A DNA stretch of 64,000 nucleotides from the NCBI GenBank assembly GCA_009692425.1, contig SHZF01000017.1:5714-69713 (forward strand), read 5' to 3'. The DNA is from Myxococcales bacterium. GTDB taxonomy: Bacteria; Myxococcota_A; UBA9042. Both the position numbers and the translations under genes were made by a program. The notes beneath the pieces were generated by a model. That model saw only the letters and a list, made by a program, of their open reading frames with translations, ran no database searches and was not told the DNA's origin. Shown piece by piece: positions 19,242-40,642 of the stretch (within the stretch, counting starts at the first letter, position 1; each line of letters begins with the position of its first letter).

Positions 19242-20975
19242 TCAACTCCGCCGCGGCACGACACTCTGGCGCTGCCACCACCATGCGAGCAGGGTGGCGG
19301 CGGAGTCGCCCTGGATCCCGTAGCTGGCCGTCATCGCGCGGCCCATCTCCGTCAATGCGCGCAGCCGATCCGTGTCGTCTTCGGCTTGTTGCGCCGCCTG
19401 CAGCGCGGCCGTGCCGTCGTGCCACGCCGACCCGTCGCTCGGCGCCGGCAAGGCTTGAACGTGCGCCGCGGCCAGCTTGATGGCGCGGGACGACAGCGCA
19501 GTTCCGCCGAAATCGCGCACGGCGAGCGCCGTCAGCACCGGTGATGCCAGCGCGGCGGCCACTTGCCACAGCGCGGCGGGGTCGCGCGGCACGATCGTGA
19601 GGCACGGCACGGAAGGCACGGCGACACCCGCCGCATCGACCCAGGGCTCGAGCACGCGCGTCTGCGTCGCCAGCAGGATCTTGGGCACCAGGCGCTGCGC
19701 CAGCCACGGTCCCAGTTTCGTGTGGGCCTCCACGCGGTCGCGGTCCACGCGCGGGGCCTGCCAGACCTGGCCATGGACGCGCGTCGCTCGCTCGCCCCAG
19801 CGGCAGCGAGCGAGGTCGATGAGGCCGACGGTCACCAGCGGCGGAAACCGATCGCGGACGTTCGCGGGCACCGCCGCGTCTTCGACCAGGCAACCGCGCA
19901 GCCCGTAGTACTGGTCGCGAAAATCAGCAGTGGCGGTGCAGCACCACGCCAGCGGACGAGATCCCTGGCAGTGGATTGCAGGAAGATCTGACGGCTCTGC
20001 ACCAAGGCTCGCCCACGTCGGTCGCTGGGCGATGCCGCGGGCGTCGGCTGGTTCCATCCATTCCAGGCCGCGGCCACGCCAGCGCGGCACGTCGGCGGGA
20101 TGGTCGGGGTCGCCCGTGCCAAGCGCGGTGCGTGTCAGGACGGGTGCAATCACGTCGACCTGGGCGTCGAACACGTCGCGCCCGCCGAGCCACAGGCCTG
20201 TCAGCACGGCGCGGGCCAGCGTCGCCGCGCGCACTGGGGCCGCGTCGCGCGTGGCCAGCAGCGAACGCGGCTGGATCAGGCACACCACGCCGCCGTCCGG
20301 CACCGCGTCGAGGGCCGCCAGCAGGAAAAGCGCAGACGCGTCGGTGTAGGCGTTCACCGCGCTGCCGAAACGGGCGCGCAACCGGTCGCGCCGCGCGCGG
20401 TCGTGGGCCGTCGGGCCCTTCAGTTGGCCGAGGAAGGGCGGATTGCCGAGCACGCACGCGAATGTGGCCGGCGCGGGGTCGAGCAGTCCGTCGCCGCACA
20501 CGATGTGGTCCGCGAGTTCGGCCAGCGGTGGCGCCGCCGGGTCGGCGTGGCGGGCGAGTGCGAGGCGAGCCAGGTCCACTGCACCGGGGTCGATGTCGGT
20601 CCCCCACAACGAATGCTGGGCAACGGTGCTGCGGGCGAGCGCCAGGGGGCATTGGTGCACATGCGCCCACGCCGACGCCAGAATCTCGAGTGCGGCGCAC
20701 AGCCACACCCCGTCGCCACAGGCCGGATCCCAGACGGTCAGGTGCGCCAGCGCAAGGGCCGGTTCGGTTGCTGCCAGGGCGCGTGTCACGAGCGGCGCCA
20801 GCACCAGTTCAGTCAGGCGGCGCGCGACATCGGGCGGTGTGTAGAAGGCGCCGAGTCGCCGCCGTTCGGTGCCGAGTCCGGCGTCGTACGATGAGCGCGC
20901 GGTGGGGTCGGCCGGGCGAGCGAGCGCTTCGAATGGCACAGGCAGCCCCTGTGCGCGTGTGCGTGCCGGGCCCAT
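19242..20975 (-). CDS. N6-adenine DNA methyltransferase, gamma class (Eco57I/TaqI-like)
   Basis: Motif X GAFYTPPDVARRL, motif I DPACGDGVWL and motif IV VLGNPPFLG appear in gamma-class order. A C-terminal region of about 280 aa is a presumptive target-recognition domain. Start CAT at 20973-20975. Confidence 0.75.
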   Translation of the reverse strand: MGPARTRAQGLPVPFEALARPADPTARSSYDAGLGTERRRLGAFYTPPDVARRLTELVLAPLVTRALAATEPALALAHLTVWDPACGDGVWLCAALEILASAWAHVHQCPLALARSTVAQHSLWGTDIDPGAVDLARLALARHADPAAPPLAELADHIVCGDGLLDPAPATFACVLGNPPFLGQLKGPTAHDRARRDRLRARFGSAVNAYTDASALFLLAALDAVPDGGVVCLIQPRSLLATRDAAPVRAATLARAVLTGLWLGGRDVFDAQVDVIAPVLTRTALGTGDPDHPADVPRWRGRGLEWMEPADARGIAQRPTWASLGAEPSDLPAIHCQGSRPLAWCCTATADFRDQYYGLRGCLVEDAAVPANVRDRFPPLVTVGLIDLARCRWGERATRVHGQVWQAPRVDRDRVEAHTKLGPWLAQRLVPKILLATQTRVLEPWVDAAGVAVPSVPCLTIVPRDPAALWQVAAALASPVLTALAVRDFGGTALSSRAIKLAAAHVQALPAPSDGSAWHDGTAALQAAQQAEDDTDRLRALTEMGRAMTASYGIQGDSAATLLAWWWQRQSVVPRRS

Positions 20976-20978
20976 CGC

Positions 20979-22133
20979 CTACGCCAACGCCCGCCCGACC
21001 GCCGCCCCCACCGCCCGCTGCAAGCCCGCCAGTTCCCCGTCCACGGTCGCCGCCGGCGTGCGCCACACCGAATGCGGTCGCTCGATGCCGGCCGGCGCCA
21101 GCCCGAGCACCTCGTCGCCCGCCACCGCCACGCGCACGGCGTCGGCGCGCGCCGCCCTTCCCAACGGACCCGCGCTCCAACTCAGCGCAAGCGTGCCGAT
21201 CCGATCCGGCAGGTCGGAGTCATCGGCGCCGCCGGCCACGAGCATGTGGGTGCGCAGGCCGTCGGGCAGGCTCTCCAAGGCCAGGGGCGTCGCGAGCGCG
21301 TCGCCCCACGGCGCCGGCAGCAGGTGCGCGAGCTGTTGGTGTGCCGAGAGCGCATCGTTGACGGGGAAAAGCAGGCGCTCGGCCGACTCCAGCGCGCGCG
21401 CCGTGCAGCCGGCCTCGTCGGGTTGCAGGGCGAGCGACGAGCGCAGCACGCCCGTCAGGTGGTCGCGCGGGCCCGGGCTGACGCGCAGATCGTGCAGGGT
21501 CCACGCCGCGCCGGGACTGCGCGCGATCCAACCGCGCAAGCGTGCCAGCCCGGTACCTGGGGCGCAGTCGATGGCGACGGCGTTCGTGTGGTCGCACGCG
21601 GGGAAGCGCCAGATGTTGCGCGGCCGCCGCAGGTCCATGCGCGCCAGATCGACATCGCGGTCCGCGCCGCCCGCCCTGGCACACGGAGCGAGCAGGACGA
21701 CGTCGGCCCGCGCCGGTGCCGCGTCGGTGAGCGCCTGGACCCAGCCTGCGGTGCCGAGCGCCGGGCCGCGCACGAACACGAGTTCCCAAGGGCGCTGGCT
21801 GTGCCCCTGCAGGACGGCGTGCAGCGCGGCGAGCCAGCCGACTGCGACGTCGGGTCCACCCAGGCCCGCGAGGTCATCGCGCCAGGTGCCGCGCCCGCCA
21901 GGCCCGGGTGGGTCGACGTCGACAGCGACCAACCACAGCGGCGCGTCGCCGACCGGGGCCGCCGGTCCGGCCGTGCGCACACATACGGCGTCGCCATGCT
22001 CCAACGCAACAGCCTGCTCGCGCACGCTGCAGCCCGCCGCAAAAAGCAGGTCGAGCAGCGCGAAGCGAAAGCCGAGCGCGTCGTCGTGGCGGGCGTGCAA
22101 CAGGCGCGCCGCGCGGGCGAGGTCGAATGGCAT
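20979..22133 (-). CDS. hypothetical protein co-transcribed with the methyltransferase
   Basis: 384-aa coherent ORF from MPFDLARAARLLHARHDD. AGGAGG RBS (reverse complement of 22136-22141) 5 nt upstream of the start at 22133. Its stop lies 4 nt before the methyltransferase start. No motif recognised. Confidence 0.5.
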   Translation of the reverse strand: MPFDLARAARLLHARHDDALGFRFALLDLLFAAGCSVREQAVALEHGDAVCVRTAGPAAPVGDAPLWLVAVDVDPPGPGGRGTWRDDLAGLGGPDVAVGWLAALHAVLQGHSQRPWELVFVRGPALGTAGWVQALTDAAPARADVVLLAPCARAGGADRDVDLARMDLRRPRNIWRFPACDHTNAVAIDCAPGTGLARLRGWIARSPGAAWTLHDLRVSPGPRDHLTGVLRSSLALQPDEAGCTARALESAERLLFPVNDALSAHQQLAHLLPAPWGDALATPLALESLPDGLRTHMLVAGGADDSDLPDRIGTLALSWSAGPLGRAARADAVRVAVAGDEVLGLAPAGIERPHSVWRTPAATVDGELAGLQRAVGAAVGRALA

Positions 22134-22135
22134 GG

Positions 22136-22141
22136 GGCCTC
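22136..22141 (-). promoter_or_regulatory. Shine-Dalgarno AGGAGG for the 20979-22133 gene
   Basis: Sequence cctcct at 22136-22141 on the plus strand is AGGAGG on the minus strand, 5 nt upstream of the ATG. Confidence 0.6.
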
Positions 22142-22306
22142 CTGCGCTGGATTCCGGGACAGGCGCCGGATTATGAGTGCGCCGTGGGCCCCGAAGCAAC
22201 GTCCGCGGCACCAGCGCGAGGTTGCCGTGGAGGTGGCCGCGCGCATTCTTCAGGTTCCTCTGGCACACTGCCGCCCGCCGCCCGCACGGCCCGGGCCTGA
22301 GGTTGC

Positions 22307-23233: not shown

Positions 23234-24043
23234 CTACATCCCCTTGCGCGCCGACTCCTCCACCATCCGCCGCGCATCCTGCACCGTGAACGGCAACTCC
23301 ATCTTGGGCGCTCCCAACGGCGCCGGCACCCACTCTTCGGGCACGGGGGTCAAGGTCGGCCCCCACTGCGACCCCGGCGCGTCGTCGGGATGCACGCCTT
23401 CGACCACGTAGTCGTGCTTGGGCCCAGCGTGCGTCGACCACGCCTCGACGCCAAAACGCACCTCCCACGGGTCTTCGATGAGGATGCGCCGGAAGCTCGC
23501 CCGCATCCGCCGCACGAAATCCACCGTCCACACCTGCGCCAGTTCCGGCTTGGGGATGCGCGCCGTCCTCACCTCGCGCAGTTCCTGCCCGGGCTCGCCA
23601 CCCAGCCCGCGCACGCGCTGCAGCGGCAACGGCTCGGTCAAATCGACGTCCATCTCCATGCGCCCGATGTTGCGCAGCGTGAACTGCGGCATCTGGTTGT
23701 CGTGGATGGCGTCCATGACGGAGGCCGGCACCATCGAATCGGTGCCCTCCTTGAAGCCGCGCGCGTATGTCTCCTGGAACTGCGAGCGCTTGACGACCGA
23801 TTCGCTCAGCCGATCGGGCTTGAACTCGTGGGGGCGAAAAACGAAAATCCCCGTCGCCAGCTTGATGTTGCGGTCCAGGACACAGTGGCGCGCCGTCGAA
23901 AACCGCTGGCGTCGCGTCACCCGCCCGGCCAGCGGCCACGCGAACATGATCGGCACGTGCAGCAAGTCCCTGGCCCGCGCTTCTAGGTGCCCGCCGTCCG
24001 GCTCGGCACGGGGGCGCCGGATGGTTGCAGGGTCAAGGTCCAT
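23234..24043 (-). CDS. hypothetical protein (last gene of the AAA/DUF1257/DUF2997 operon)
   Basis: 269-aa coherent ORF. It starts 8 nt after the stop of the DUF2997-like gene. No known motif. Confidence 0.5.
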   Translation of the reverse strand: MDLDPATIRRPRAEPDGGHLEARARDLLHVPIMFAWPLAGRVTRRQRFSTARHCVLDRNIKLATGIFVFRPHEFKPDRLSESVVKRSQFQETYARGFKEGTDSMVPASVMDAIHDNQMPQFTLRNIGRMEMDVDLTEPLPLQRVRGLGGEPGQELREVRTARIPKPELAQVWTVDFVRRMRASFRRILIEDPWEVRFGVEAWSTHAGPKHDYVVEGVHPDDAPGSQWGPTLTPVPEEWVPAPLGAPKMELPFTVQDARRMVEESARKGM

Positions 24044-24050
24044 GGGGAGC

Positions 24051-24263
24051 CTACGCGTCGCCGCCCTGATCGACCTTTTCGGTCTGATCCTGCTGTTGGT
24101 AGAACTCCGAAGTGTGCTGGCGCTCCTTGACGATGCCGAGCGCCAGTTCGATCTCGCGCGTCAGCCGCTCGCAATCGGGGCCCTTGAGGCCGACGACCTT
24201 GATCGACACCTCGCCGTGGTCGTCGATGGTGAACTCGATCTCGCGGCGGGTGGCCATCTTCAA
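24051..24263 (-). CDS. small DUF2997-like protein
   Basis: 70-aa ORF MKMATRREIEFTIDDHGEVSIKVVGLKGPDCERLTREIE... Its size and pattern resemble the small proteins that travel with DUF1257 and AAA ATPase genes. The family name is from memory and not verified. Confidence 0.55.
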   Translation of the reverse strand: MKMATRREIEFTIDDHGEVSIKVVGLKGPDCERLTREIELALGIVKERQHTSEFYQQQDQTEKVDQGGDA

Positions 24264-24300
24264 CTCCTGGCGTTGGCTCGGCGCGCTCCAACCTGACGCG

Positions 24301-24711
24301 CTACTCGCTCCAGCTGGAAACCTTGATGTGAATCTGCTGGTTCTCGTCGATCTTCTCTTCTTCGAGGGTGTAGCCGCGCTTCGTCACCTCTTCCTTCACG
24401 GTGTGGTAAGCATAGCGCTGCACGACCTTGCGCGTGAACTGGTCCTGATTGTAGCCCGCCGTCATCTCGACGAATTCCCAGTCGGCCACGAACGCCACGT
24501 TGCCGGTTTCCGCATCCACTGTGACACCGATGTCGTACGTTTTTGAGGCGTGGATCGCGATCTTCGCGCCGGTGGTCTGGCCGAGGTAGCCCTTGACCTT
24601 GACCGTCTCGTTCTCGTGGGCCTGGGTGAACGCGAAGCCGAGTTCCTTGAGCACGAGCACCAGGCGCGCGACATTGTTGATTTTCGTCTGGACGGTCGTG
24701 AAGTGGGACAT
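24301..24711 (-). CDS. DUF1257-like protein
   Basis: From internal Met MSHFTTVQTKINNVARLVLVLKELGFAF... (CAT at 24709-24711). The 30 codons upstream in the ORF are low-complexity. The stop sits 6 nt after the AAA ATPase gene stop. Confidence 0.6.
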   Translation of the reverse strand: MSHFTTVQTKINNVARLVLVLKELGFAFTQAHENETVKVKGYLGQTTGAKIAIHASKTYDIGVTVDAETGNVAFVADWEFVEMTAGYNQDQFTRKVVQRYAYHTVKEEVTKRGYTLEEEKIDENQQIHIKVSSWSE

Positions 24712-24716
24712 GGGGT

Positions 24717-26378
24717 CTACATCTCCAACCGCGCCTGTTTCTCGTCCGTTGGCGCCGCCTCGTCGGGCGGACTGGCCCGGCGCGCGCGCGACTTTGACCA
24801 CTCTCGCATTTCTGCGAGCCGCTCGCGCATGGTCATGCTCAACGGAATGATTTCCTTGATGTTCTGGATCAGCCTATCCGTCGTGATGTCCGTCTTGCCG
24901 AAGCCCTCGTCGTACGCGTCGTAGAGCGCGGCCACGATCACCTCTTCGAGTTCCGAGCCGGAATAGCCGCCCGAGGCTGCCACGAGCCGGTCCAGGTCGT
25001 AGCCGCCCGGATCGCGGTGGCGCTTCTTCAGGTGGATATCGAAAATAGCCTTGCGTTCCTCGCGGTTGGGCAGATCCACGAAGAAGATTTCATCGAAACG
25101 GCCCTTGCGCAGCAACTCGGGCGGCAGCATCGAGACGTCGTTGGCGGTCGCGATCACGAACACCGGGCTCGTCTTCTCCTGCAGCCACGTCAAGAACGTC
25201 GCGAACACACGCGCCGTCGTGCCGCCGTCCGACGAACCCGACGACTTCGTGCCCGAAAACCCCTTCTCCAGTTCGTCGAGCCACAGGATCGCGGGCGCCA
25301 CGGCTTCAGCCGTCTTGATGGCGCGGCGCATGTTCTCTTCGGACGAACCGACGAGGCTGCCGAACACCTTGCCGACGTCCAGGCGCAAGAGCGGCATCTG
25401 CCACCCCTGAGAAATCGCCTTTGCCGCCAGCGACTTGCCGCAACCAGGCACTCCCAGCAGCAGGATGCCCTTGGGCGGCGGCAGGCCGAACTCCTGGGCC
25501 GCGGGCGTAAACGCGTGGCGGCGCTTGTTGAGCCACTCCTTCAGGTAGAAAAGCCCACCGACCGACTCCATGCCGAGCGTCGTCTCGTAGAATTCGAGGA
25601 TGCCGGACTTGCGGATGATGTGCTTCTTCTCCGCCAGGATCGTCTTGAGACTGAAGCCCTTGTCGCGCACGGAAGTCTTTTGGAAGACTTGCGTCGCCTC
25701 CGACTCGGTCAGCCCGAGCGCGGCCTCGGCGATCTCGCGCTGCATTTCTGGATTCTCAAGCACCTTCGCGAAGTTCTTGCCATAGCGCTGCGACTTGGCG
25801 CCCGCGAACGCCTGCTCGCGCACGATGTCTTCGAGGGTCTGGCGGTCGGGCAGATCGAAATCGACGACGACGAGGTCCTTCTCCAGTTCCATCGGAATTT
25901 TGACGGTCGGGCTCAGGAACACGATCGACCGCTTCGCCTGGGTCGGGTCCTTGAACTGGCCAGGGATGTCGCGCACGCGGCGCGCCACCATGGGGTCGTT
26001 GAAAAACGGATGAAAATCGCGGAGCACCACGATCGCGTCGCGCGTCAGGTTGTTCGCGATCCAGTCGAGCGCGCGGATCGGGTCGCGGATGTCGCCCGGC
26101 ACGTCGGCCTGGTCGCAGCGAAATCCCTGGCTGCAGCTCCACTTGATCAGCTGACGCGGCTTCCACGTCGTTACATCCCAACGCTCGCGCAAGTGGGGAC
26201 TGTCGAGCACGGCGACATCGCGCAGCCAGCTCTCGACGCGGTCCTCCTCGGCCGACACGATGTAGATCAGCTTGTACTGGGCGCGGACGAGGTAGTGCAG
26301 TTCATCGACGGCGGCGGGCACGGTGCGCCCGGGCGACGCGGCGACGGCCTCAGCTATGGGAGAAGCGCTTGTAGTCAT
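24717..26378 (-). CDS. AAA+ ATPase (classic AAA/FtsH-Cdc48 clade) with about 300-aa N-terminal domain of unknown function
   Basis: Walker [19 protein letters not shown], Walker [12 protein letters not shown], sensor-1 [23 protein letters not shown] and Arg-finger region are present. The N-terminal 300 aa are uncharacterised. Confidence 0.8.
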
Positions 26379-26386
26379 TCAATTTC

Positions 26387-28273
26387 CTACGATCCAAGAG
26401 ACTTCCGCACCGACGCCACCATGCGCTCCTGCTCCTTGAGATCCTGAGCGAGCACGATCGCGATGTCGTTCATCAGTTCGATGGAGTCGCCCAGATCGCC
26501 GGCCGCCGCCTTGTGCTTCTCCATCTGTTGCGCGTAGCGCTTGATCAGGTTGGCATTCGACGCCGACGCCGACACCGTATCGGCCAGCGCTTCGAGGGTC
26601 TCGGGCACATCGGCCGGCACGGTCGGCCCCTTGGGCGCTTGGTTCTCGGCGAGTGCTTCGTTCAGCCGCACTTCGGTGTCGCGCAGCTTGGCTTCGAGGG
26701 TCTCGACCCGCTTCTGGCCCTGGGCGAGTTCGGCTTCGAGCGCTTTCGTCGCCGCGCCCGTCGCCTCGACGGCTTCGAACTTGACCTGGGCGCGCGCGAG
26801 TTCCTTCTGCACGCTCGACAGTTCCTCGCGCAGTCGCTCGATTTCGCGCGCCTTCGCCTTGAAGTCGGGGTGCTCGCTCACATCGACCAACGCGGCCGGC
26901 TTGCGTTCGGCGGCTGTCTTGGCGGCCTCCAGTTCGGCCTTCATCGCCTCGGCACTGCGCTGGGCTTGCATGGCGCGCTCCTGCAGTTCGTCCACGCGGC
27001 GGGTCGCGTTGTGGTAGTCCTGCAACAACTGGCGCTTTTCGTGTTCCAAGTCGCTGATGCCGACGCCCATGCGGACCTGCCTGATTTCCATGTCCTTTTC
27101 GCGCAGGTCGATCTGCAATTGCTGGATCTTGTCTTCCTTCTCCTGAATGACTTCCTGTAGCAGGTTGATCTTGCGCTCCAGACGCCCTTGGTCGTTGGAC
27201 TCGCGGTTGAAGCTCGACTGCAGCGACTCATTCTCGTCGCGGGCGGCGCGCAGTTCGTACTCCAACAGGTCGAGCTGCCGCTGCAACTCCTCGATCTGTC
27301 GGTCTTTCTGCGTGATGCGGACCTTCAGCCCAGACAACTGCTCCGTGGCGTCGGTCGCCTTCTCGCGTGCGGCCTGGATTTGCTGCTCGAACTCGGTGGC
27401 GCGCCGCTCTGCCTCGAACAGCCGGTCTTCCTGCTCGCGCAATTCCGCCCGCGTCTTTTCGAGCTCCTTCTGGATGACCTGGTTGTGCTCCTTGAGCTTG
27501 ACGTACTTCTCGCTCAGGCCCTCCAACTCGACTGAATAGCGCATCGCGCGCGGCTCGATCGCCTTGACGTCGGCCTCCGCTCGCGTCGCCCGCGCCTCGG
27601 CCTCGGCGAGCGACTGTTCGAGCGCGCGCACCCGGCGGCCCAGTTCACCCGCGTCGCCACCGCCAGCGGACGTCGGCGCCGGTCGAGCGGTCGGCTGCGA
27701 TACCACGGGGGCCTGACCCGTCGGCACGGCAGTCCGCGCCGCGGCGGGCCGGTCCGCGGACTGCGGTTCGGGGCGGGCACTCGGACCGGCCGCCGGGCTC
27801 GGTTCGCGCCGGGTGGTCGCCGCGCCGATGGCGCCTGCGCGGGCCGCGTGCTGCTGCGTCTGCTTGTCGGCCACCAATGCGACGAGCTTGGCCTGATCTT
27901 CGGCCTTGAAGCCTGTGGTCGGCATTGCCTTGGCGACGGGTCGTTCGGCTTGCGGCGCACCGCCGCCATCCTTTTTCGATGAACCTGGGCGCAGGAAGAT
28001 TTCGAGCACTTCGCCGCAACGGACCGTGTCGCCCTCGCGGATGACTGCGCGCTGGGTGCGCTCGTTGTTGACGAAGCTGCCGTTCGACGAGCCGAGGTCC
28101 TTGATGTAGTAGCCGTCCTCGTCCCAACCGATGCGGCCGTGGTTGCGCGAAACGGTTGTCTCTTTCGAGTAGACGGTCGACCCCGGGTTGCGCCCGATGG
28201 TCACCGGTTCCATGTCCGGCCCCGCCGGGTGCTGGACCCAGTTGCCCGACACGTCGCGCCACTCAAGGTACAT
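26387..28273 (-). CDS. FHA-domain protein with about 400-aa coiled-coil
   Basis: N-terminal FHA motifs VTIGRNPGSTVYSKETTVSRNHGRIGWDEDGYYIKDLGSSNGSFVNNERT. The rest is a heptad-rich E/R/K/Q segment. Its stop lies 9 nt before the AAA gene start. Confidence 0.75.
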   Translation of the reverse strand: MYLEWRDVSGNWVQHPAGPDMEPVTIGRNPGSTVYSKETTVSRNHGRIGWDEDGYYIKDLGSSNGSFVNNERTQRAVIREGDTVRCGEVLEIFLRPGSSKKDGGGAPQAERPVAKAMPTTGFKAEDQAKLVALVADKQTQQHAARAGAIGAATTRREPSPAAGPSARPEPQSADRPAAARTAVPTGQAPVVSQPTARPAPTSAGGGDAGELGRRVRALEQSLAEAEARATRAEADVKAIEPRAMRYSVELEGLSEKYVKLKEHNQVIQKELEKTRAELREQEDRLFEAERRATEFEQQIQAAREKATDATEQLSGLKVRITQKDRQIEELQRQLDLLEYELRAARDENESLQSSFNRESNDQGRLERKINLLQEVIQEKEDKIQQLQIDLREKDMEIRQVRMGVGISDLEHEKRQLLQDYHNATRRVDELQERAMQAQRSAEAMKAELEAAKTAAERKPAALVDVSEHPDFKAKAREIERLREELSSVQKELARAQVKFEAVEATGAATKALEAELAQGQKRVETLEAKLRDTEVRLNEALAENQAPKGPTVPADVPETLEALADTVSASASNANLIKRYAQQMEKHKAAAGDLGDSIELMNDIAIVLAQDLKEQERMVASVRKSLGS

Positions 28274-28376
28274 GCGGCCAAGCCTCCGGGAGCGCGTACC
28301 CTGTACAGCCGAATTCGCGCGCCCCGAGTCTAGTGCAGCGTCAACCGCCCGTGCAAGGTACGGCGGGAACCGGTGT

Positions 28377-31045: not shown

Positions 31046-31131
31046 TTTGCCGGGAGGCGTCACGTTGCCGGGGAGCGTGTCGTTCACTTTGCCGGGGAGC
31101 GTGTCGTTCACTTTGCCGGGGGCTGCACGCG
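31040..31131 (-). repeat. three to four degenerate copies of a 24-bp unit spanning the rSAM stop codon
   Basis: cactttgccggggagcgtgtcgtt occurs perfectly at 31085-31108, with degenerate copies immediately before and after. On the minus strand the rSAM 3' end ...CCGGCAAAGTGA is re-iterated as ACGACACGCTCCCCGGCAAAGTGA. Confidence 0.7.
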
Positions 31132-32286
31132 GGCGCCCTGGCCCTTCTTTGGGCGGTAGATCGGAAAAACGAACCGCTCCGGGCGCGGCAGGCGTGGGCC
31201 GCCGCTGGGCACGCCTTGCCACACCTCCGGACCCAGCGGTTGGCCGGTCGCGGCTTCGTAGGCGGCCATCCGGTAGCGTGTTTGCTCGTGGAACTGCACG
31301 GGAGCCTTGCGAAAGTCGCCTGTCTGCTTGAACGCCTCGCCAGGGCAGTACGCACAATGGCCGCTGCCGCCACACGACGTGCAACTCGTCCGATCGCGGT
31401 TCTTCCACGCCACGATCTGCTGGCGCTCCACCGAGCCGCGCCAGATGGCGGCAAACGACTGTTCGCGCAGGTTGCCCAGCGCCATGGGGAACTGCGCGCA
31501 CGGCCACACCGCGCCATCGGGGGTCACGTAGGCCCGGCTGCGACCGGCACTGCACGCGCCCTGGCCCTGGCGTTCCGACACCGGTGGCCGCGGGGGAGCC
31601 GGCGTCAAGCGCAGGCGTTTCTCCTCGGCGCGCTGGAAGTCGGCCGGCGGCATGGCGAGCACGTCGAGGTCCTCGTTGCCCAGGTGGTTGCGGAAGATGT
31701 CGTTGCCGAACACCACGTTGCAGCCCTGCGCGCTGAAGCAGGCGAAGAGGGCTTCCATCTCGTCGATCGTGTTGCTCTGCACGACGCAACTGACGCGCAC
31801 GGCCACGCCCGCCGCGCGCAGTTCGGCGATGCCCGCGCACGTCGCCGCCAACGATCCGGCGCGCTGGGTAAAGGCGTCGTGCACGGCGGGGCGCAACGAG
31901 TAGACGCTGACATGGACTTGCGCGATGCGCAGCGCGGCGAGGTGGCGGGCGCGCGCGGCGTCGATCAACCCGGCGTGCGATTTCAGGGTCTGCGCGAACC
32001 CGCGCTGGGCCGCATACGCCAGCAGTTCGTCCATGTCGGCGCGTTCGAACAGTTCGCCGCCCGACCAGAGCAGCTTCCACACGCCGAAGTCGGCAAGTTG
32101 GTCGACGAGGGCCCGCAGTTCAGCCCCCGTCATCTCCGGCCAGGTCGTGCGGTTGTCGAGGTAGCAGTGTTTGCACGCCAGTCCACAGCGGTAGGTCGCG
32201 TCGATGTGGACGGTCTGCGGGACGTCGGCGCGCTGCACCGCGGCGTGCAAGGCCTGTGCGATTTCCCTGGAAGCGGCCGTGATCAC
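31108..32286 (-). CDS. radical SAM / SPASM-domain peptide-modifying enzyme
   Basis: CGLACKHC is the canonical CxxxCxxC, with HIDATYR ahead of it. C-terminal SPASM-type Cys cluster: CSAGRSRAYVTPDGAVWPC...CTSCGGSGHCAYCPG. I chose the GTG start at 32286 because it overlaps the HprK-like stop as GTGA (translational coupling). The alternative ATG at 32355 would overlap that gene by 73 nt. Confidence 0.8.
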   Translation of the reverse strand: MITAASREIAQALHAAVQRADVPQTVHIDATYRCGLACKHCYLDNRTTWPEMTGAELRALVDQLADFGVWKLLWSGGELFERADMDELLAYAAQRGFAQTLKSHAGLIDAARARHLAALRIAQVHVSVYSLRPAVHDAFTQRAGSLAATCAGIAELRAAGVAVRVSCVVQSNTIDEMEALFACFSAQGCNVVFGNDIFRNHLGNEDLDVLAMPPADFQRAEEKRLRLTPAPPRPPVSERQGQGACSAGRSRAYVTPDGAVWPCAQFPMALGNLREQSFAAIWRGSVERQQIVAWKNRDRTSCTSCGGSGHCAYCPGEAFKQTGDFRKAPVQFHEQTRYRMAAYEAATGQPLGPEVWQGVPSGGPRLPRPERFVFPIYRPKKGQGARVQPPAK

Positions 32287-33158
32287 GCGGACTCCTGCTG
32301 GGCTGCGTACGCCGCCAGGGTCTCGGCAATGGTCTCTGGCGAATCGTCGAGACAATGCGACAGGAGTCCCACCGGAACGTCCCGACCGAGGGCCGCCGCA
32401 GCGTCGAGCAACCAGGGCGTGGCGGCGCCGCCGGCATAGTAGGCCCGCGCCAGGACGAGTGCGGCCCGCTCACCTGCAGGCGCGGCGACGACCTCGGTGC
32501 GGGTGCGCACGTTGGGCAGCAACACGAACAGGCCCCCGAGCGGCAGCACAAGCGCGTGTTCGCCAGGCAGGCCGCGCCACTCCGCATGGTGCCAGGCGGT
32601 CCAACCTGCCGGCGTCGGCACAAGGTACGCGATCTCGTCGTGGCTCGCCACGCCCGGAAACCGCCTGGCGAGCGTCGTCTTGCCCACTCCGCTGTGCCCC
32701 GCGATGACCCACGCACGCCCGCCCGCCTGCAAGGTCGCCGCGTGCAGGGCGATGCCGCCGCGCACCAGGACTTCTGCGAGGCCCGCCGTGAGCATGCCTT
32801 CGACGGCCGCGTCGTGGACCCCTTCCGGCTGTTCGTGGGGCACGTGCAGGGTCAGCGTTCCTTGGGCCGAGGTCCGGTCCAACTCGACCGACGCCCACGG
32901 GGCGCGCGCGGCATAGCCGTTGGCGTCAAAGCGACTGAACACGACGGATTCTTGGCGGCTGCCAGGCACCGCGCGGTAGCCAAACCGGATCGCAGCGGGC
33001 CCTTGTCGTTCCAGCCAACGTCGCCTGAACACAGGCCCGCAGTGGGCCGGAACCTCGAATTGCAGCGTCACGGGTCCAAACCGGACATCCGGACGCCGAA
33101 CCGGCAGGCCGCGCGCGTGAAGGTCTTCGAGCAGCGAACCCGCTCGGCTGCCGGGCAT
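32283..33158 (-). CDS. HPr-kinase C-terminal-domain-like P-loop protein (HprK-related)
   Basis: HAATLQAGGRAWVIAGHSGVGKTTLA is a P-loop in the HprK/P C-domain context. 291 aa. The start lies 3 nt after the precursor ORF stop. Confidence 0.7.
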   Translation of the reverse strand: MPGSRAGSLLEDLHARGLPVRRPDVRFGPVTLQFEVPAHCGPVFRRRWLERQGPAAIRFGYRAVPGSRQESVVFSRFDANGYAARAPWASVELDRTSAQGTLTLHVPHEQPEGVHDAAVEGMLTAGLAEVLVRGGIALHAATLQAGGRAWVIAGHSGVGKTTLARRFPGVASHDEIAYLVPTPAGWTAWHHAEWRGLPGEHALVLPLGGLFVLLPNVRTRTEVVAAPAGERAALVLARAYYAGGAATPWLLDAAAALGRDVPVGLLSHCLDDSPETIAETLAAYAAQQESA

Positions 33159-33160
33159 CG

Positions 33161-33334
33161 TCAGTCCGTCGTGGAGTTAAGGGTGTCGCAGCCAGGGATG
33201 TTGGTACCCAGCAATTCGAGCAGTTCGGCGTCGACCGTCTGGATCGCTGGCGCCGCGTAGGGAGCCTTGGCGGGCACACCTGTGCTGCCGTCGCTCTCGC
33301 CCTGCGGCGTGTTCGGAGAGTCGTTCATCTGCAT
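33161..33334 (-). CDS. candidate RiPP precursor peptide (57 aa)
   Basis: MQMNDSPNTPQGESDGSTGVPAKAPYAAPAIQTVDAELLELLGTNIPGCDTLNSTTD. AGGAG RBS (reverse complement of 33340-33344) 6 nt upstream. Stop TGA at 33161-33163 lies 3 nt before the HprK-like start. Leader-like amphipathic ELLELL segment; single Cys in a C-terminal GCDTLNSTTD tail. Confidence 0.5.
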   Translation of the reverse strand: MQMNDSPNTPQGESDGSTGVPAKAPYAAPAIQTVDAELLELLGTNIPGCDTLNSTTD

Positions 33335-33393
33335 GGCCCTGCTCCTGGTGGCGCGCCTCAGCGCCGCGCCAAAGGGGAAAAACGCCCCCGTCG

Positions 33394-36300
33394 TCAGTAC
33401 ATGATCACGAGCGACCCGTCCGTGGATCCGATGGCCGCGTCCGCGACGCCGTCGCCCGTGAAGTCGTCGAGCGGCGCGATGCCCACACCGCCCCATGAGT
33501 TCGAACCGATGCCCCACTTCGGGTCGCCGGGCTTGAACGGGTTGCCGAATTCGATGTCGGCCACGGCGTAGCTCGCGGCAGTTCCCGTCGCCGAAGCTCC
33601 GGCCGCGCCGGGCCGCACCAAACCGTGCCGAATGGTCACGATGGACGATGCGCCTGGCATGAAAAACGCCGGCCGGCCGTGGATCAGGTCGACACTGCCG
33701 CCGCCAGCCGCGCCGACCTTGCCGAAGCGCTGCAGCCCGGCCACGAATGCGTCGGCCACAAACCCGTGGGGAACCTGGTAGAGCCCCGTTTCGCCGGGCA
33801 CCGGCGTAGTTAGCAGGAACGCCACGCCGCCGAGCGATTTGTTCAGCGCACTCCCGCGCAGCCAGTAGATGCCGCCCGTCTTGCCGAACGAAGAGCCGCC
33901 CTGCTGCTGGATCACGAGATCGACCAGGCCGTCGCCATCGAACTCGACGGCATCCATCTGGAAGCCGATCACGTTCGCGCCGAACTGCGTCGCCGACGTC
34001 CCCGCGCTCACGTGGACGGCACTCGCGCTCGCTGGCAGCGTGGTGTCGTACTGGGCAAACTCGAGCACCTGATCCCCCGCCGCCGGCCGCCCCTTGACGA
34101 GGCGCACGCACTCCGCCGACGTCGACTGTTGGATGCCCACGTCTTCATACTGGGTGCCCTTGCCGTCGCCATCGAGCAGCAGGTTGCCGAGGCCCCAGAT
34201 CGCCGCCCCGAAGACTGGCGCACTGACCGGATTCTTGATGTTCAGCGTGATGACATTGTTGTCCTTGCGCTGCGTGGCGTTGTCGATGTCGATCGTCAGC
34301 GTCTTGCCGTCCGCGAGCGTCGCGTTGCCGGGCACGATCAGGACACGGGTGTAGGTGACCGTCGCCGTCGGAAAGGTGGTGACGCCGAACGAGTCGATCG
34401 GCAGGCCGGCCGCCGACTTGGCTCCGGTGAAGTTGCCGGTCACGTTCATGCGCAGGACGCCGAACGGCAACGGGTTCACGATGCCCGTCACGATCAGCGC
34501 CGGCGTCTTGCCCAGCGTGCCGGCCTTCTTGCCCAGGTACACGTGCACGCTGCGCAGCTTGCCCACGCCGATGCCGTTGCCGACCACGAGATCGCCGATG
34601 CCGTCGCCGTTCATGTCGGCTGCGCGCCCCGTCGTGGCACCCAGGCCGCCGTCCTTGTTGTCGAAGCAGGTGTAGCCAGTGCCGTCGAGGCTGTCGATCG
34701 TCAGCGCCGCCAACAGGCCGTCGGCGCCCGCCTTGCGGCCGTAGACGACACACAGGGGAGCTTTTTCGCCGCCGCCCGCCACGAAGTCCGCCAGGCCGTC
34801 GCCGTTGAGATCGCCGACTGGGAAAGCCCGCGAACGGAACTCGGGCACGTCGAACAGGCCCTTGGTCACCACCTGCAGGTAGCGCAGCCGCAAGTCCTTC
34901 GTCGTGATGACGTTGGAAACCGGCGAGCGGTTGCCCGCGGCGTCGACCGCCTGGATCGCGAATGCGTACTGGGTGATGCCGTCGTCGACCATCGGATTGA
35001 ACTTGCAGACGTCCGAGCCCACGCGCGGGTCGGGACCGTCTACCTGAATCGTTTCGTTGCCGCCAGCGTCCGTCGGGGTCGAAATCTTCGCAAACGGCAG
35101 GGCCTTGGCATCGCACGCCGCCTTGAACTCGGTCTCGTTGGCGAGCGCCGTCTTCTTGACGTAGCGCACGTCGTAGCTCGCCGCCTTGCCCGTCAGCCCG
35201 TCGTCGCCAACCGCCGTGAAGCGCAGCGCGATGCCGGGCAGCCGCGGCTTGAGGTCGCTCGCCTGCAAGGGCAGGAGCACGGGCGCGGCCGGCGGCGTCC
35301 AGTCCGCCTTGATCGCAATGGAGGCCTCGGCCGTATTGCCCAGCGCATCTTGCACGGTGGCGCGCACGATGTTGGTCGCGTTCTCCTGCAAGGTCGCGTG
35401 CTGCACCTCGACGGTGGCCGTACCGGCGGTGTCGAACGTCTTCGGCAACGTGACGGACTTCTGTGCCAGGTCGGCAGCCGCGCCACCCGCGACCGTGCGC
35501 TGCAGCGCAGTCACCTTGCCACCCTTGAGGCCGCTGTCGGTGACCTGCAAGAGCAAGTGGAGTTGGTGGCCGGGCGTGGCGGGGTCGGTGTCGGACGGTT
35601 TGCCGACCGTGCCGCTGACGCCCCCTGGGGTCGCGACGCTCTGCACGGTGCCTGCAACCCACTGTGCCACGGGATTCGTCAAGTCGGCGAGCACACCGAT
35701 CGCCCCCGTGCTGCCCTTTGCGGTGCCGACGGTCACGCCCTCGAGCGAGAACTTGGCGCCATCGGCCACCGTCACATCGAAGGTGGCGACGGACGCGGTC
35801 GGCGCCTTGCTCGCGACCTCCTTGCCATCCTTCAACAGCTGGACCGCCGTGACCGTGCCGCACGGGCCGAAGAACTCCACCATGACCTTGGCAGCCACGC
35901 TCGCGCAGTTCTTGCCCTTGTCGGCGCAGGACTGTGTCGTGAAGGCGCCGCCTTGCGGAAGCCCCTTCATCGACAGGAGGCAGCCCGACAGCTTGACGGC
36001 GAAACCCTGCTCGACCTTGGCCGTGTTGCCCGAGGAGTCCTTCGCCGTCAGCCGCGCCGAATAGTTCGGGGTGGCGCCGAACGGCACGGTCAGCAAGATC
36101 GTCGGCTCCTGCTTGCCGGGTGCGGTGACCGTGCCGCTGCCCACGGGCGCGTAGCCGGCACACTTGGCGAACGTCGCATCGCAGTCCGCGCCCAATTCGA
36201 GCGTCCATGATACAGCGTCGGTCGTGGTGAACTGCACCGTGACCTGGTAACCGCCCACGGCGGGCGCCGCGTCGGCAGCGTCAGCAAACGTCGCACCCTG

Positions 36301-39300
36301 CGCAGGTGCATCGATCTTCAACACGGGGGGCTTGGTATCGACCCCAACGACGGCCGGCGTCGTCTGGACCGTCGCGGTGTTGCCGCACGCGTCGATGAGC
36401 TCTGCCGTCAGTTCATGCTGACCGTCACCGAGCACGCCGTACTTCGCGTGGGGATACTTGGTCGCGCCGCTGGCGAACGCTTCGGTCGCCTTCGTCACGC
36501 CGGCGTCCTTCAACACCGCGGCTTTGCCCTCGACATCGACCGTGCCGGCGTCCGCGATCAGTTCGATGTCGAGTGGATCGCCCGCCAGCAGGGTCGCCTT
36601 GCCTGTAGCCGGCACCGCAAACGTCGCCGCCGGCTTCGTCGTGTTGACTTGCCACGTCTGCGCGGCCGACTCCTTGCCCTTGTTGCCGACCGCGTCCAGC
36701 GCCTTGGCGACGACCGTGACGGCCCCTTCGACCGGGATCGGCACGTTGAGGGTGACGGTCTTGTTCTGCGACTGCGCCGTCGCCGCGATGGCATCGTTGA
36801 CCAGCACGAACACCAGCGCATCCTCGTTGGCCAAGGTGGCGACGAACTTGAACGTGCCGCCGGCCTTCGTGTCGGGTGCGGCGTCGAGCTTGCCCGACAG
36901 GCAACCGGCGGGCACATCGGCAGCGCTCGGCCCGACCAGCGACGCCAGCACCGGCACGATGCTGTCGAGCACGATGGTGCGGTCCTTGCCGGTGATGGAC
37001 GGGCTGCCGAGCGACGACGTCCAGTCGATGCCGGTCCCTGCGTCGGACGTCTCGGCGGTGAAGTGGTACTTGCCGTCCGTCAGCGCCGACATGTCAAAAT
37101 CGATCAGGTTGTTCTGCGACTTCGTGATCGAGACGACTTCGTTGTACCCGGCTTGCTTGCACGGGCCCTTGCCGACGCCCGGCGTGTCGGAGCACAGCCG
37201 CACCAGCGCGCCCGACGGCATGCCGATCACGTTGACGGTGATGGTCTTGGACGAATCCGCGTTCCACGGGGTCGCACACGTTCCGCCCGCGCAGACGCCG
37301 AGGCCGCACTCCGCCGTCGCCGTGCACGGCTTGGCCACGATGCCCAGGGGGGACTGGAACTGGATTTCAGGCTGCTTCGAAATCACAGTCGCGACCACGG
37401 TCTTCGAAGCCGGGTTGCCCGCCGCGTCTGCGGTCGCGAACACGATCTTGACCTTGTTGCCGTCGGGCAGCGTGACGACCCCGAAGCTCACCGCACCGAT
37501 CTGACCGTCGGACACGTCGGCAGCGACCGTGGCCGGATAGCTGCCGTTCTTGGCGCCGTTGTCGTCGAACACGTCGGCAACGACCTTCGTGCCGGCGCTG
37601 ACGCCCGACACCTGCACCTGCAGGTTGACCTGCATGCCGTCCGCCGGGTTCTGGTTCACGTCGTCGAGCGCCGCCAGCGTGAAGGTCGCGGCGCCGCCCT
37701 TGGCCGGCGAAGACAGGCTGCCGAAGACCGGCGCGGTGCGGTCGATCTTGATCGTGACGACTTTGGATGTCGCCGTCTGGTTGGCCGCATCGACCACCTT
37801 GGCGGTCAGTTCACACGTCGTCTGATCGGCCAGCACGATGCCGGTGAACGGCGCTTTGCCCGCAGCTACGACGCCCGCCACCGCCTTGGATGCCGCGCCG
37901 CACTTGACGGTCAGGGTCACCGCGCTGTCGTCCTCGGCATCCGTCGTCGCCACATCGACCTGGGTCACACAGTTCGCCACGCCTGGCAGACACGCAGCCG
38001 CCGTCAGGTTCAGGTTCGACCCGTCGGTCGGCGCGGTGATCGTGGCCGTGGGCAACTTGTTCTTGAAGCCGAGGTCGATCGCCGCGGAGTAGCCGATCGC
38101 CTTGGGCGTGGCGGCGAGGTAGGCGCCGACTTGCAGCGTAGTTGAGCCCTTCGACAGGCCGCTGATTTCGAACGAGTACGTGCCATCGCCGACATCGGTC
38201 ACCGGGGCAGCGACCTTGGCGCCGTTGACGAGCACGTCGAGCGTCGCGCCGGGCATGGCCGCGCCGTTGGGCTTGGCGACCTTGACCTTGACCGTCAGCT
38301 TGTCGGTGATCACGCTGCCTGAGCCAAGCGGTTGCAGGAACGTGACGACCGGCGCCTCGGAAACGAGCGTGATCGTGCTGACCGCCGTCTTGGTGACGTT
38401 GCCGACCGTGTCGGTGGCGGTCGCATGGACCGCATTCGGTCCCGCCTGCAGCGAGATGCCCTCGAAGACCACCTTGCCCTTGCCGAGCAGGCCGGATTGA
38501 CAGGAAACCTTGGCGCCGCCGACGTATACGCACGCACTGGCCGCGTCGGCACTGGTCACGGTCAATTCGACATCGATCTGGTAGCCGGGCTTGGGGTCCG
38601 AGTCGAGGTCGTCGGCAGCCGTCAGGGTCGCTTTCGAAGGCAGCGTGATGGCGACGCTCGGCCCCTTGGAGTCGAGCGTGAAGTTGCGCTTGACGGTGGA
38701 ACAGGTCTGCTCCGAAGCGACGTTGCCGAGCAGATCGGTGGCGTCGAACGTGATGACGTAGGCGCCATCGGGCAGCGTCTCGGCCGGCGCTCCGACTTGG
38801 AGGGCGAGCGTGGTCGACAGCAGACCCTTCTTGGGCTGGCCGACCGCCAGCGCCGGATACGCGCCCCCGCCCGGCACGGCAATGACGGCCTTGACGTCGC
38901 GGTTCTCGAGGTTCGTGGTCGTCAGCGCCACGTTGAACGACGCCGTGGTCAGCGTGACGTCGCCTGCCGGCAGCGCCACTTTCAAGCATGGCGCGGGCAG
39001 GGCCACGGTGACGGCAACGTCCTTTTCCGACTGGCTGGGGTTCGGCGCATTGTCCTTGGCCATGCACGTCACAGCGGAGCCCAGGCTCTCCACGTCGATG
39101 ACGACGGGGACCGCCAACGAAGTCGCGGCTGCGTCGGAAAACTTCGCCGAGCCCGATGCCGTCGGCGGATACGCCACGTTTGGCCCGGACTTGCGGCAGA
39201 AGATCGACACCTCCGTGCTGAGGTCCGGTGCGGCCTGAAAGTTCACCGTCACGGTCGTCTCGTACGTGAGCGCCGTTTCGGGCTTGCCGTCGTTCTTGGC

Positions 39301-40530: not shown

Positions 40531-40642
40531 GCTCTCTCCTTGTTCCTTCGGCCCGGTCCGCTGCAATTGAGTTCAAGGCGATCCAGTGGGTTAGTGCGAT
40601 CTGGGTCTGCGGCGACAGGCTCCGACTCGGGGGGCCGTGCGC

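Follow-up and report, generated by a model that had tools for sequence, protein, structure and literature searches.

A five-gene operon lies on the minus strand at positions 23234-28273 of the 64,000-nucleotide (nt) stretch of Myxococcales bacterium DNA analysed here (the window), and it encodes an FHA-coiled-coil protein (gene 1), a Ycf46-type AAA+ ATPase (gene 2), a DUF1257/Ycf35-family protein (gene 3), a DUF2997 mini-protein (gene 4) and a further protein of 269 residues (gene 5). The operon is real and its arrangement is far beyond chance. As for its role, we favour, with moderate confidence, the explanation that it specifies a Ycf46-family AAA+ machine with two small partners, coupled in Myxococcota to a phosphothreonine-reading scaffold, which would unfold, extract or load a substrate.

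The five open reading frames (ORFs) lie where the original prediction had placed them, and all carry a coding signature, with a GC content of 0.85-0.90 at third codon positions (GC3) versus 0.33-0.47 at second positions (GC2) in a genome of about 69% GC. Two of the start codons were corrected. The DUF1257 gene starts at ATG 24711, giving a protein of 136 residues with the N-terminus MSHFTT; GTG 24801 was rejected as its start, as the gene would then overlap the AAA gene. The DUF2997 gene most likely starts at ATG 24257, 7 nt downstream of an AGGAG sequence, and the gene calls for the same contig likewise give a protein of 68 residues, while the alternative start TTG 24263 would give 70. After these corrections, the intergenic gaps are 8, 5, 43 and 7 nt. 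A simple scan of the minus strand found no sigma-70-like site and no terminator, and no promoter was identified. In one relative (locus L005; loci are cited by our own handles), an opposite-strand gene lies between the LysM gene, which precedes the operon, and the FHA gene, and hence the operon is taken to start at the FHA gene.

The conservation of this arrangement was examined by scanning species-representative genomes with two peptide patterns from the ATPase N-domain and a seven-sequence alignment. At least 523 genomes had a relative; the best 80 loci were kept, 69 of them of the Myxococcota type, and hidden Markov models from four orthologue sets were run on all ORFs of these loci. The DUF1257 and DUF2997 genes are directly downstream of the ATPase gene on the same strand in 64 of the 66 assessable Myxococcota loci, the two exceptions being Bradymonadales; in one of these, L048, both small genes are close by but on the opposite strand. 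An FHA-coiled-coil gene is directly upstream of the ATPase gene in every assessable Myxococcota locus (61/61). A 765-residue gene product encoded upstream of AAA in a distant relative has no precomputed Pfam match and is a true gene 1 orthologue according to the alignment. Gene 5 is present in the same position in 36 of 58 assessable loci, all within one subclade. Between distant Myxococcota, the ATPase sequences share 54-61% identity (54-85% over the whole range), and its Sericytochromatia and Chloroflexota members are 55-58% identical to each other, which indicates that purifying selection is strong, as would be the case for a core machine.

DUF1257 and DUF2997 accompany the ATPase in at least four phyla. 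An Elusimicrobiota contig has the order AAA-DUF1257-DUF2997, in which the stop of one gene overlaps the start of the next, and lacks an FHA gene. All three core genes lie within 2-4 kb on one strand of plasmids from Pseudanabaena, Geminocystis and Planktothrix; among Bacillota plasmids, one from Paenibacillus also has all three, and on one from Bacillus cereus DUF2997 comes after AAA. The predicted synteny of the trio thus holds in Myxococcota as well as in Elusimicrobiota and on plasmids of Cyanobacteriota and Bacillota. The T4-like cyanophage P-SSM2 of Prochlorococcus has an overlapping DUF2997-DUF1257 pair (PSSM2_178/179, L094:2802-3381) and no AAA gene, which echoes the cyanobacterial DUF2997-ycf35-fed7 cluster (PMC4284462). 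Since the pair occurs without AAA in both cases, the two small proteins can be argued to work together. In P-SSM2, a ferredoxin gene lies a few genes away from the pair. DUF2997 with DUF1257 is therefore the tightest unit, and the ATPase forms the next tier. The FHA protein and gene 5 had been described as an extension of the trio; the FHA linkage is indeed conserved, but both genes are myxobacterial additions and not part of a universal core. Mere adjacency of five genes with no joint function is highly improbable: although neither a sigma-70 promoter nor a terminator was detected to delimit the unit, the gaps on the one strand are 5-43 nt, the order is kept in 60 or more species and the trio recurs in several phyla.

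Gene 2 encodes a protein with two modules, a degenerate AAA+ one (D1) followed by an active classical-clade one (D2), with a conserved linker between them and a C-terminal motif specific to the family. Its N-terminal 300 residues had been regarded as a domain of unknown type, and instead they hold what is, on structure comparison, a predicted degenerate AAA+ module without Walker A. D1 has DFH at the Walker B position, and the 11-residue segment at the Walker A position is not a P-loop; the consensus at this site in a 127-member family alignment is lirArypl...v..EE.R. A profile-profile comparison of D1 with D2 (hhalign) gave a weak local match with a probability of 24%, and hence the assignment of D1 to AAA+ rests on the structure comparison. 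A sequence search of the PDB had no match for D1; only residues from 257 onwards of gene 2 matched, to Cdc48/p97/VAT (E ~1e-52).

D2, to which the Pfam AAA profile matches at residues 305-435 (PF00004, E 4.5e-29), has the Walker A motif GVPGCGKS, the Walker B motif LWLDELEK, sensor-1 ATAN and arginine fingers in an 11-residue segment. Walker A (GvpGcGKS), Walker B (DE.EK), sensor-1 (aTaN) and the arginine-finger segment are near-invariant in the 127 diverse members, with a conservation of at least 60-90%. D2 therefore has the full catalytic set of the classical AAA+ clade (Cdc48/FtsH/proteasomal), i.e., Walker A and B and a second region of homology (SRH) with sensor-1 and two arginine fingers. 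Of the hallmarks of type II tandem proteins, the chain has two AAA+ folds and lacks the nucleotide-binding motifs in the first. In summary, gene 2 is a tandem AAA+ protein whose first tier is dead and whose second tier is predicted to be active.

This build, a family-specific N-module fused to one active AAA module in about 500-550 residues, is that of the Ycf46 family. The N-module family comprises 3211 representative clusters (50% identity, E <= 1e-3), with named members in Armatimonadota, Planctomycetota, Sericytochromatia and Chloroflexota. We scored 8000 protein relatives of gene 2, one of which, an 'AAA family ATPase [Myxococcales bacterium]', is 100% identical; full-length matches include cyanobacterial plasmid AAA proteins and Sericytochromatia, and phrog_8638 also matches gene 2 over its full length (1.9e-139). 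The one link to the chromosomal and plastid ycf46 genes (e.g., slr0374) is a COG-level JGI label, 'SpoVK/Ycf46/Vps4'.

The DUF1257 and DUF2997 assignments, made originally from the letters alone, were borne out by profile searches, in which both proteins scored above the Pfam gathering thresholds. Gene 3 matched PF06868 with an E value of 2.3e-19 (70 bits, cut-off 22.2). Its N-terminal MSHFT is invariant, with M1, S2 and H3 invariant in 42 homologues, and a Met-Ser-His start is characteristic of Ycf35 (PMC13060386). No match for DUF1257 was found by a PDB sequence search, and a fold search of BFVD returned one unnamed significant match and nothing informative. The RNA-binding KA1 domains of METTL16 and TUT1 are among its best fold matches, and we infer that DUF1257 is probably a non-enzymatic, KA1-like alpha+beta domain. 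Gene 4 matched PF11211 over the full profile (positions 1-47) with an E value of 1.4e-15 (57.3 bits, cut-off 24.1). In an alignment of 68 loci, DUF2997 is a domain of about 47 residues with one invariant Cys in G-x-x-G-x-x-C, followed by a conserved T-S-E-Y/F-Y-Q motif and then a variable acidic tail. A role of DUF2997 as a ubiquitin-like or Pup-like tag was rejected, as the 68 loci have neither Gly-Gly nor GGQ/E conserved at the C-terminus. Gene 5 has no match in Pfam, NCBIfam, PADLOC, PHROGs or PDB, and its homology can be traced in alignments to 22% identity; it is a clade-restricted accessory of a Myxococcota subclade.

Gene 1 consists of an FHA domain (residues 24-87), an Ala/Pro-rich linker (about 100-210; 24% Ala, 13% Pro), a coiled coil (about 210-560; rich in Glu, Arg, Leu, Ala and Gln, with 2% Pro) and a conserved C-terminal region, with many coiled-coil-type Pfam matches at residues 210-600. 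The coil spans about 350 residues, and its central section is unusually conserved in the orthologue alignment. The FHA residues G27, R28, S42, R43, H45 and N64 are invariant in four orthologues, down to 30% identity, and the GR...SRxH...N signature that they form supplies the Arg, Ser, His and Asn that canonically contact phosphothreonine. Hence, judging by its sequence, the gene 1 FHA domain is a predicted phosphothreonine-peptide-binding module. In Polyangia/Haliangiales, four consecutive FHA genes precede AAA, encoding Zn-ribbon+FHA, VWA+FHA, FHA and FHA+coiled-coil proteins. This array was seen in metagenome-assembled genomes (MAGs) of Polyangia (L058:914-5948 and L046:172-5922), and in the former an FHA + sigma-54 activator gene is found about 4 kb downstream (L058:12051-12788).

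In the mechanism that we favour, the ATPase would form a hexameric ring in which D2, driven by ATP, would act on a protein substrate by pulling on, unfolding, extracting or loading it, while D1 may be a structural or partner-docking tier acting via its conserved, nucleotide-free surface. DUF1257 and DUF2997 together could be an adaptor, a regulator or the first (primed) client of the ring. The FHA domain would dock the complex onto a target phosphorylated on threonine, and the activity of the complex would thereby follow Ser/Thr-kinase signalling, with the gene 1 coiled coil as a putative spacer or scaffold and gene 5 as a possible lineage-specific accessory or client. The cassette is built as a module: where Myxococcota have the FHA scaffold, other lineages have a contractile injection system, an SNF2 helicase, a small radical-SAM enzyme or Hsp70/GrpE. 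The coordinates of the operon and of its domains are given in Table 1.

Table 1. Positions in the window of the operon genes, their domains and the likely promoter region, with the basis of each assignment
Feature	Position	Strand	Basis
Likely operon promoter region	28274..28376	-	103-nt gap between the LysM gene and gene 1, the sole long gap on this strand
Gene 1, 628-residue FHA + coiled-coil protein	26387..28273	-	Pfam FHA and SMC/tropomyosin-type matches
FHA domain of gene 1, residues 24-87	28013..28204	-	PF00498, E 1.2e-15, full profile 1-67
Gene 2, 553-residue Ycf46-type AAA+ ATPase	24717..26378	-	Pfam AAA and lid matches
D1, predicted pseudo-ATPase AAA+ fold, residues 1 to about 265, no P-loop	25584..26378	-	Structure comparison
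D2, predicted active AAA module, residues about 295-510	24849..25496	-	Motifs in the 127-member alignment; residue alignment with Cdc48 D1/D2
Gene 3, 136-residue DUF1257/Ycf35-family protein, small alpha+beta domain	24301..24711	-	Pfam PF06868
Gene 4, 68-residue DUF2997 mini-protein	24051..24257	-	Pfam PF11211; ribosome-binding site; alignment of 68 loci
Gene 5, 269-residue protein with conserved PQFxLRNxGR motif	23234..24043	-	Homologues in the same position

The genes found next to the ATPase in other lineages bear on several alternatives. The Spirochaetota ATPase, with 37-42% identity in D1, is encoded inside contractile-injection-system clusters, whose gene order, read by ORF pattern or Pfam in L056, L057, L068 and L074, is FHA, VWA+Zn-ribbon, sheath, gp19 tube, CIS_tube/LysM, GPD hub, Fer4_12 radical-SAM and AAA. 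DUF2997 and then a pentapeptide-repeat protein come after AAA in an Oceanispirochaeta MAG (L057:179-8461). On the Treponema succinifaciens plasmid pTRESU01, VgrG/Pvc8-family and baseplate-V genes flank AAA (L095:7067-8491) on either side, and DUF1257 (L093:5001-5408) lies among the tail/baseplate genes of a second injection-system-like cluster. In the spirochaete injection systems, the role of the ATPase seems to fall to the Ycf46-type AAA. A small radical-SAM gene (180-280 residues, Fer4_12/NrdG-like) is directly 5′ of AAA in 10/10 Spirochaetota loci and in Coriobacteriia and Elusimicrobiota, and it is one or two genes upstream of AAA on both Bacillota plasmids; it was never found upstream of AAA in the Myxococcota loci examined. 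Such genes lie at L087:5381-5956, L057:5386-5940, L095:6336-6944, L096:4922-5770, L097:5068-5709 and L071:2119-2709. The invariant Cys of DUF2997 is one candidate substrate of the small radical-SAM protein.

These clusters raise the question of whether the myxobacterial operon encodes a cargo loader or assembly ATPase, under post-translational FHA control, that serves a contractile injection system or some other nanomachine of the envelope whose genes lie elsewhere in the genome, a role that we consider unlikely. The operon would then be a Cis15/Pvc15-like ATPase module, analogous to the threonine-phosphorylation pathway of the type VI secretion system. In favour of such a role, the AAA gene follows the small radical-SAM gene in the 10 Spirochaetota loci and in one Coriobacteriia locus, it takes the ATPase position together with FHA and VWA genes in the spirochaete sheath-tube-hub clusters, and on pTRESU01 both it and DUF1257 keep company with injection-system genes. 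The FHA, VWA and Zn-ribbon genes are also common to the Polyangia loci and the spirochaete clusters. In addition, Cis15 is the hallmark AAA ATPase of contractile injection systems (PMC12210884), and Pvc15 follows the same logic of a dead D1 and an active D2. However, no sheath, tube, hub or baseplate gene occurs in the window or within 6-8 kb in the 69 Myxococcota loci, and no injection-system gene of any kind was found among the window ORFs tested. The cassette also occurs in plastids and in cyanobacterial operons reported as three genes only, and the ATPase lacks the Pvc15 N domain. The LysM protein encoded next to the operon has a hydrophobic, signal-peptide-like N-terminus, as read from its translation, and no tube domain.

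A second set of neighbours concerns nucleic acids. An SNF2-family helicase gene is directly 3′ of AAA in a Sericytochromatia MAG, in Litorilinea aerophila (Chloroflexota) and in an unassigned contig (L088:7482-11374, the unassigned contig; L090:7605-10621; L091:7726-9675). In L088 and L090, a protein of 419-630 residues without a Pfam match comes after SNF2. In line with these neighbours, the machine could be a nucleoprotein remodeller that clears stalled or damaged protein-DNA or protein-RNA complexes, with DUF1257 as a KA1-like nucleic-acid-binding adaptor. Besides the SNF2 linkage and the KA1 fold matches, the Paenibacillus plasmid neighbours (UDG, ThyX and UvrD), a helix-hairpin-helix protein encoded 5′ of AAA in B. 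cereus and the ppGpp-dependent cyanobacterial ycf46 operon, which is anti-correlated with ribosomal genes (bioRxiv 10.1101/2025.07.21.665879), all point in this direction. The SNF2 link is nevertheless limited to a few lineages, and no helicase or nucleic-acid-binding domain is encoded in the window operon or in the Myxococcota loci, so that we regard this role as very unlikely here.

The ATPase is also widespread on mobile elements. There are 36 plasmid records of the AAA family, in Bacillus, Paenibacillus, Planktothrix, Paenarthrobacter and others, and 39 phage records. Among the latter, gp99 of the Corndog-type mycobacteriophage Ryadel (L089:3926-5626), to which 33 phages are similar, is a 566-residue AAA-ATPase that has the same dead-D1 N-module, at 24% identity. 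Neither DUF1257 nor DUF2997 was detected among the Corndogvirus neighbours of the AAA gene, and a ParB-like gene is close by. PHROGs families exist for DUF1257 and DUF2997 too. The frequency of the AAA family on large plasmids and in mycobacteriophages, the PHROG families matching all three core proteins, and the toxin-antitoxin and OLD/RloB-type modules among the plasmid neighbours would fit a conflict or mobile-element module (for anti-phage defence, counter-defence, or plasmid or phage maintenance) that was domesticated on the chromosome. The FHA+VWA+Zn-ribbon arrays presumably also resemble phospho-signalling conflict systems. Against this, the Myxococcota operon occupies a fixed chromosomal position among housekeeping genes and has a typical GC3, and the 54-85% identity of its ATPase is unlike that of fast-evolving defence islands. 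PADLOC-DB 2.0 gave only generic AAA matches to the ATPase (IetA, 2.2e-23, and TRIP13), found no IetS-like partner and matched none of genes 3-5; the operon thus does not correspond to a catalogued defence system. With ycf46 and ycf35 also retained in plastid genomes (PMC5940233), a conflict module seems improbable to us.

Chaperone genes provide a further context. On the Pseudanabaena galeata plasmid pPg_01 (L092:2864-10363), a cluster opens with GrpE, an Hsp70-family protein and DUF1257 and continues with an AAA_21/AAA_15 ATPase and a 167-residue protein, DUF2997, the Ycf46-type AAA and a HEAT/WD40 protein. The AAA_21/AAA_15 ATPase and the 167-residue protein are probably an inserted defence pair. 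In two phyla, a Peptidase_M20 gene adjoins the cluster at junctions that overlap or measure 4 nt; it is absent from the window. It comes after gene 5 in one Myxococcota clade (L003:11065-12246; also L027, L028, L030, L033, L037, L038 and L044) and after SNF2 in Litorilinea (L091:9679-10896).

Several observations weigh against the adaptor-guided, phosphothreonine-directed remodelling machine that we favour. The contexts of the cassette span an injection system, SNF2, radical SAM, Hsp70, phages and plasmids; since they are so varied, it may do something more specific than general remodelling. Pore loop 1 of D2 is Leu-Val-Gly, conserved as l-v-G in the 127-member family alignment, and not the aromatic-hydrophobic-Gly of typical pore loops; it aligns to W-Y-G of yeast Cdc48 D2, and hence threading in the canonical way cannot be taken for granted. 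The window flank ORFs tested include no gene for a Ser/Thr kinase or a PP2C phosphatase, and among the relatives only L003 has a PP2C gene nearby, three genes upstream. As for the proposal that the operon is a Ser/Thr-kinase-regulated remodelling machine, the invariant FHA residues speak for it, but with no kinase or PP2C gene in the flanks examined, the kinase part is read from the FHA domain.

In a broader version of this reading, Ycf46, Ycf35/DUF1257 and DUF2997 could be an ancient, portable loader/unfoldase cassette that was plugged into lineage-specific machines, a possibility that we put forward tentatively. These machines would include injection systems with a radical-SAM partner in Spirochaetota, SNF2 helicases in Chloroflexota and Sericytochromatia, Hsp70/GrpE on a cyanobacterial plasmid and phospho-signalling scaffolds with FHA/VWA in Myxococcota. 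If so, the myxobacterial operon would be its threonine-phosphorylation-gated version, and solving it would reveal the role of the plastid and cyanobacterial ycf46 and ycf35 genes. These genes have been "hypothetical chloroplast reading frames" for decades, and their operon is among the most stress-induced in cyanobacteria. The adaptor-guided unfoldase/loader, with an input module that differs by lineage, is a testable hypothesis, and non-photosynthetic, genetically simpler contexts are now on offer for finding its substrate.

In the window, the operon is flanked by genes for a LysM protein, a TPR protein, a radical-SAM/SPASM protein, an alpha/beta hydrolase and a DNA methylase-like protein and by housekeeping genes. 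The region 24001-28000 has a GC content of 0.63-0.66, compared to a window average of about 0.69, and a strongly negative AT skew. Recent horizontal transfer, suggested by the lower GC, was rejected, as GC3 is genome-typical and the chromosomal position is conserved. Because GC3 is typical, the lower GC is put down to the Glu/Lys-rich proteins, which are its likely cause rather than a foreign origin. Upstream of the operon, on the minus strand, the radical-SAM/SPASM gene, an adjacent 291-residue ORF and a 2390-residue ORF (31108-33158 and 33394-40566) have equivalents in L001 that are annotated as ScmC and a 2384-residue Big_13/FG-GAP protein; the region 31108-40566 looks like a separate peptide-maturation or surface-protein cluster. 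At 19242-22268 (minus strand), a 577-residue N6-adenine DNA methylase-like protein (Eco57I/MmeI-type matches) and a 429-residue protein without a Pfam match are encoded, which may be a restriction-modification remnant.

The trio is already known but uncharacterised. The cyanobacterial stress operon, which the original prediction had invoked, is found in the literature as slr0373-slr0374(ycf46)-slr0376 and Synpcc7942_0416-0418 (PMC7496141; bioRxiv 10.1101/2025.07.21.665879). This three-gene operon is strongly induced by blue light, by iron, sulfur or nitrogen limitation, by salt, by high light and by oxidative stress (PMC7496141), as well as under low inorganic carbon (PMC7283877), and in Synechococcus it is RpaB- and ppGpp-dependent and shows an inverse correlation with the expression of ribosomal genes (bioRxiv 10.1101/2025.07.21.665879). 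From a knockout, Jiang et al. 2015 (cited in the ycf46 operon papers) proposed that Ycf46 has a role in CO2 utilisation. In freshwater red-algal plastids, ycf35 and ycf46 were lost together (PMC5940233). The view that the trio has no known function agrees with the searchable literature, which describes no mechanism, structure or FHA-linked form of it.

Like cyanobacterial and plastid Ycf46, the window ATPase belongs to the 500-550-residue length class and has a single active AAA module. DUF1257 is Ycf35, including the MSH N-terminus, and the trio co-occurs on cyanobacterial plasmids. In contrast to the cyanobacterial case, the window operon belongs to a non-photosynthetic myxobacterium and adds the FHA-coiled-coil gene and gene 5. 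Since the host is non-photosynthetic, roles in CO2 utilisation or photosynthesis cannot be the general function of the family.

Among better understood machines, Pvc15 consists of an N domain, an inactive D1 and a D2 that is the sole active ATPase, and it loads or unfolds signal-peptide-tagged cargo of Photorhabdus virulence cassettes (PMC11495950). Pvc15, Afp15 and Cis15 share with the window ATPase a degenerate first module, a second module as the sole active one and a place in the classical clade with SRH. However, the window ATPase is without the N domain of about 205 residues, and its D1 has no P-loop at all, whereas that of Pvc15 has deviant residues; nor are DUF1257 and DUF2997 described as partners of Pvc15. 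With 553 residues starting at D1, compared to about 700 for N+D1+D2, and no injection-system cluster around it, the window ATPase stands outside the Cis15/Pvc15/Afp15 group. The type II classical-clade unfoldases Cdc48/p97/VAT and mycobacterial Msm0858 differ from it in having the double-psi-barrel N domain and a canonical nucleotide-binding motif in D1, and in pore loop 1, which is L-V-G in the window ATPase. Other AAA+ proteins with one dead tier (Pex1/Pex6 D1, NSF D2, FtsHi/Ycf2) show no sequence relationship to it beyond the AAA+ fold (about 10% identity).

The threonine-phosphorylation pathway of the type VI secretion system links Fha1/TagH, PpkA/PppA and the AAA+ protein ClpV. It resembles the window operon in the genetic coupling of an FHA protein to an AAA+ protein, and the spirochaete relatives also have a sheath-tube machine; it differs in that ClpV is a Clp/Hsp100 AAA+ protein, i.e., of another family, and in that the window has no kinase/phosphatase pair. 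Compared to the searchable literature, the form with the FHA-coiled-coil protein and gene 5, the identification of D1 as an AAA+ tier without a P-loop, and the connections with injection systems, radical SAM, SNF2 and Hsp70 appear to be new. In summary, the operon would work most like the Pvc15-type loaders and Cdc48-type unfoldases, while by membership it belongs to the Ycf46/Ycf35/DUF2997 group.

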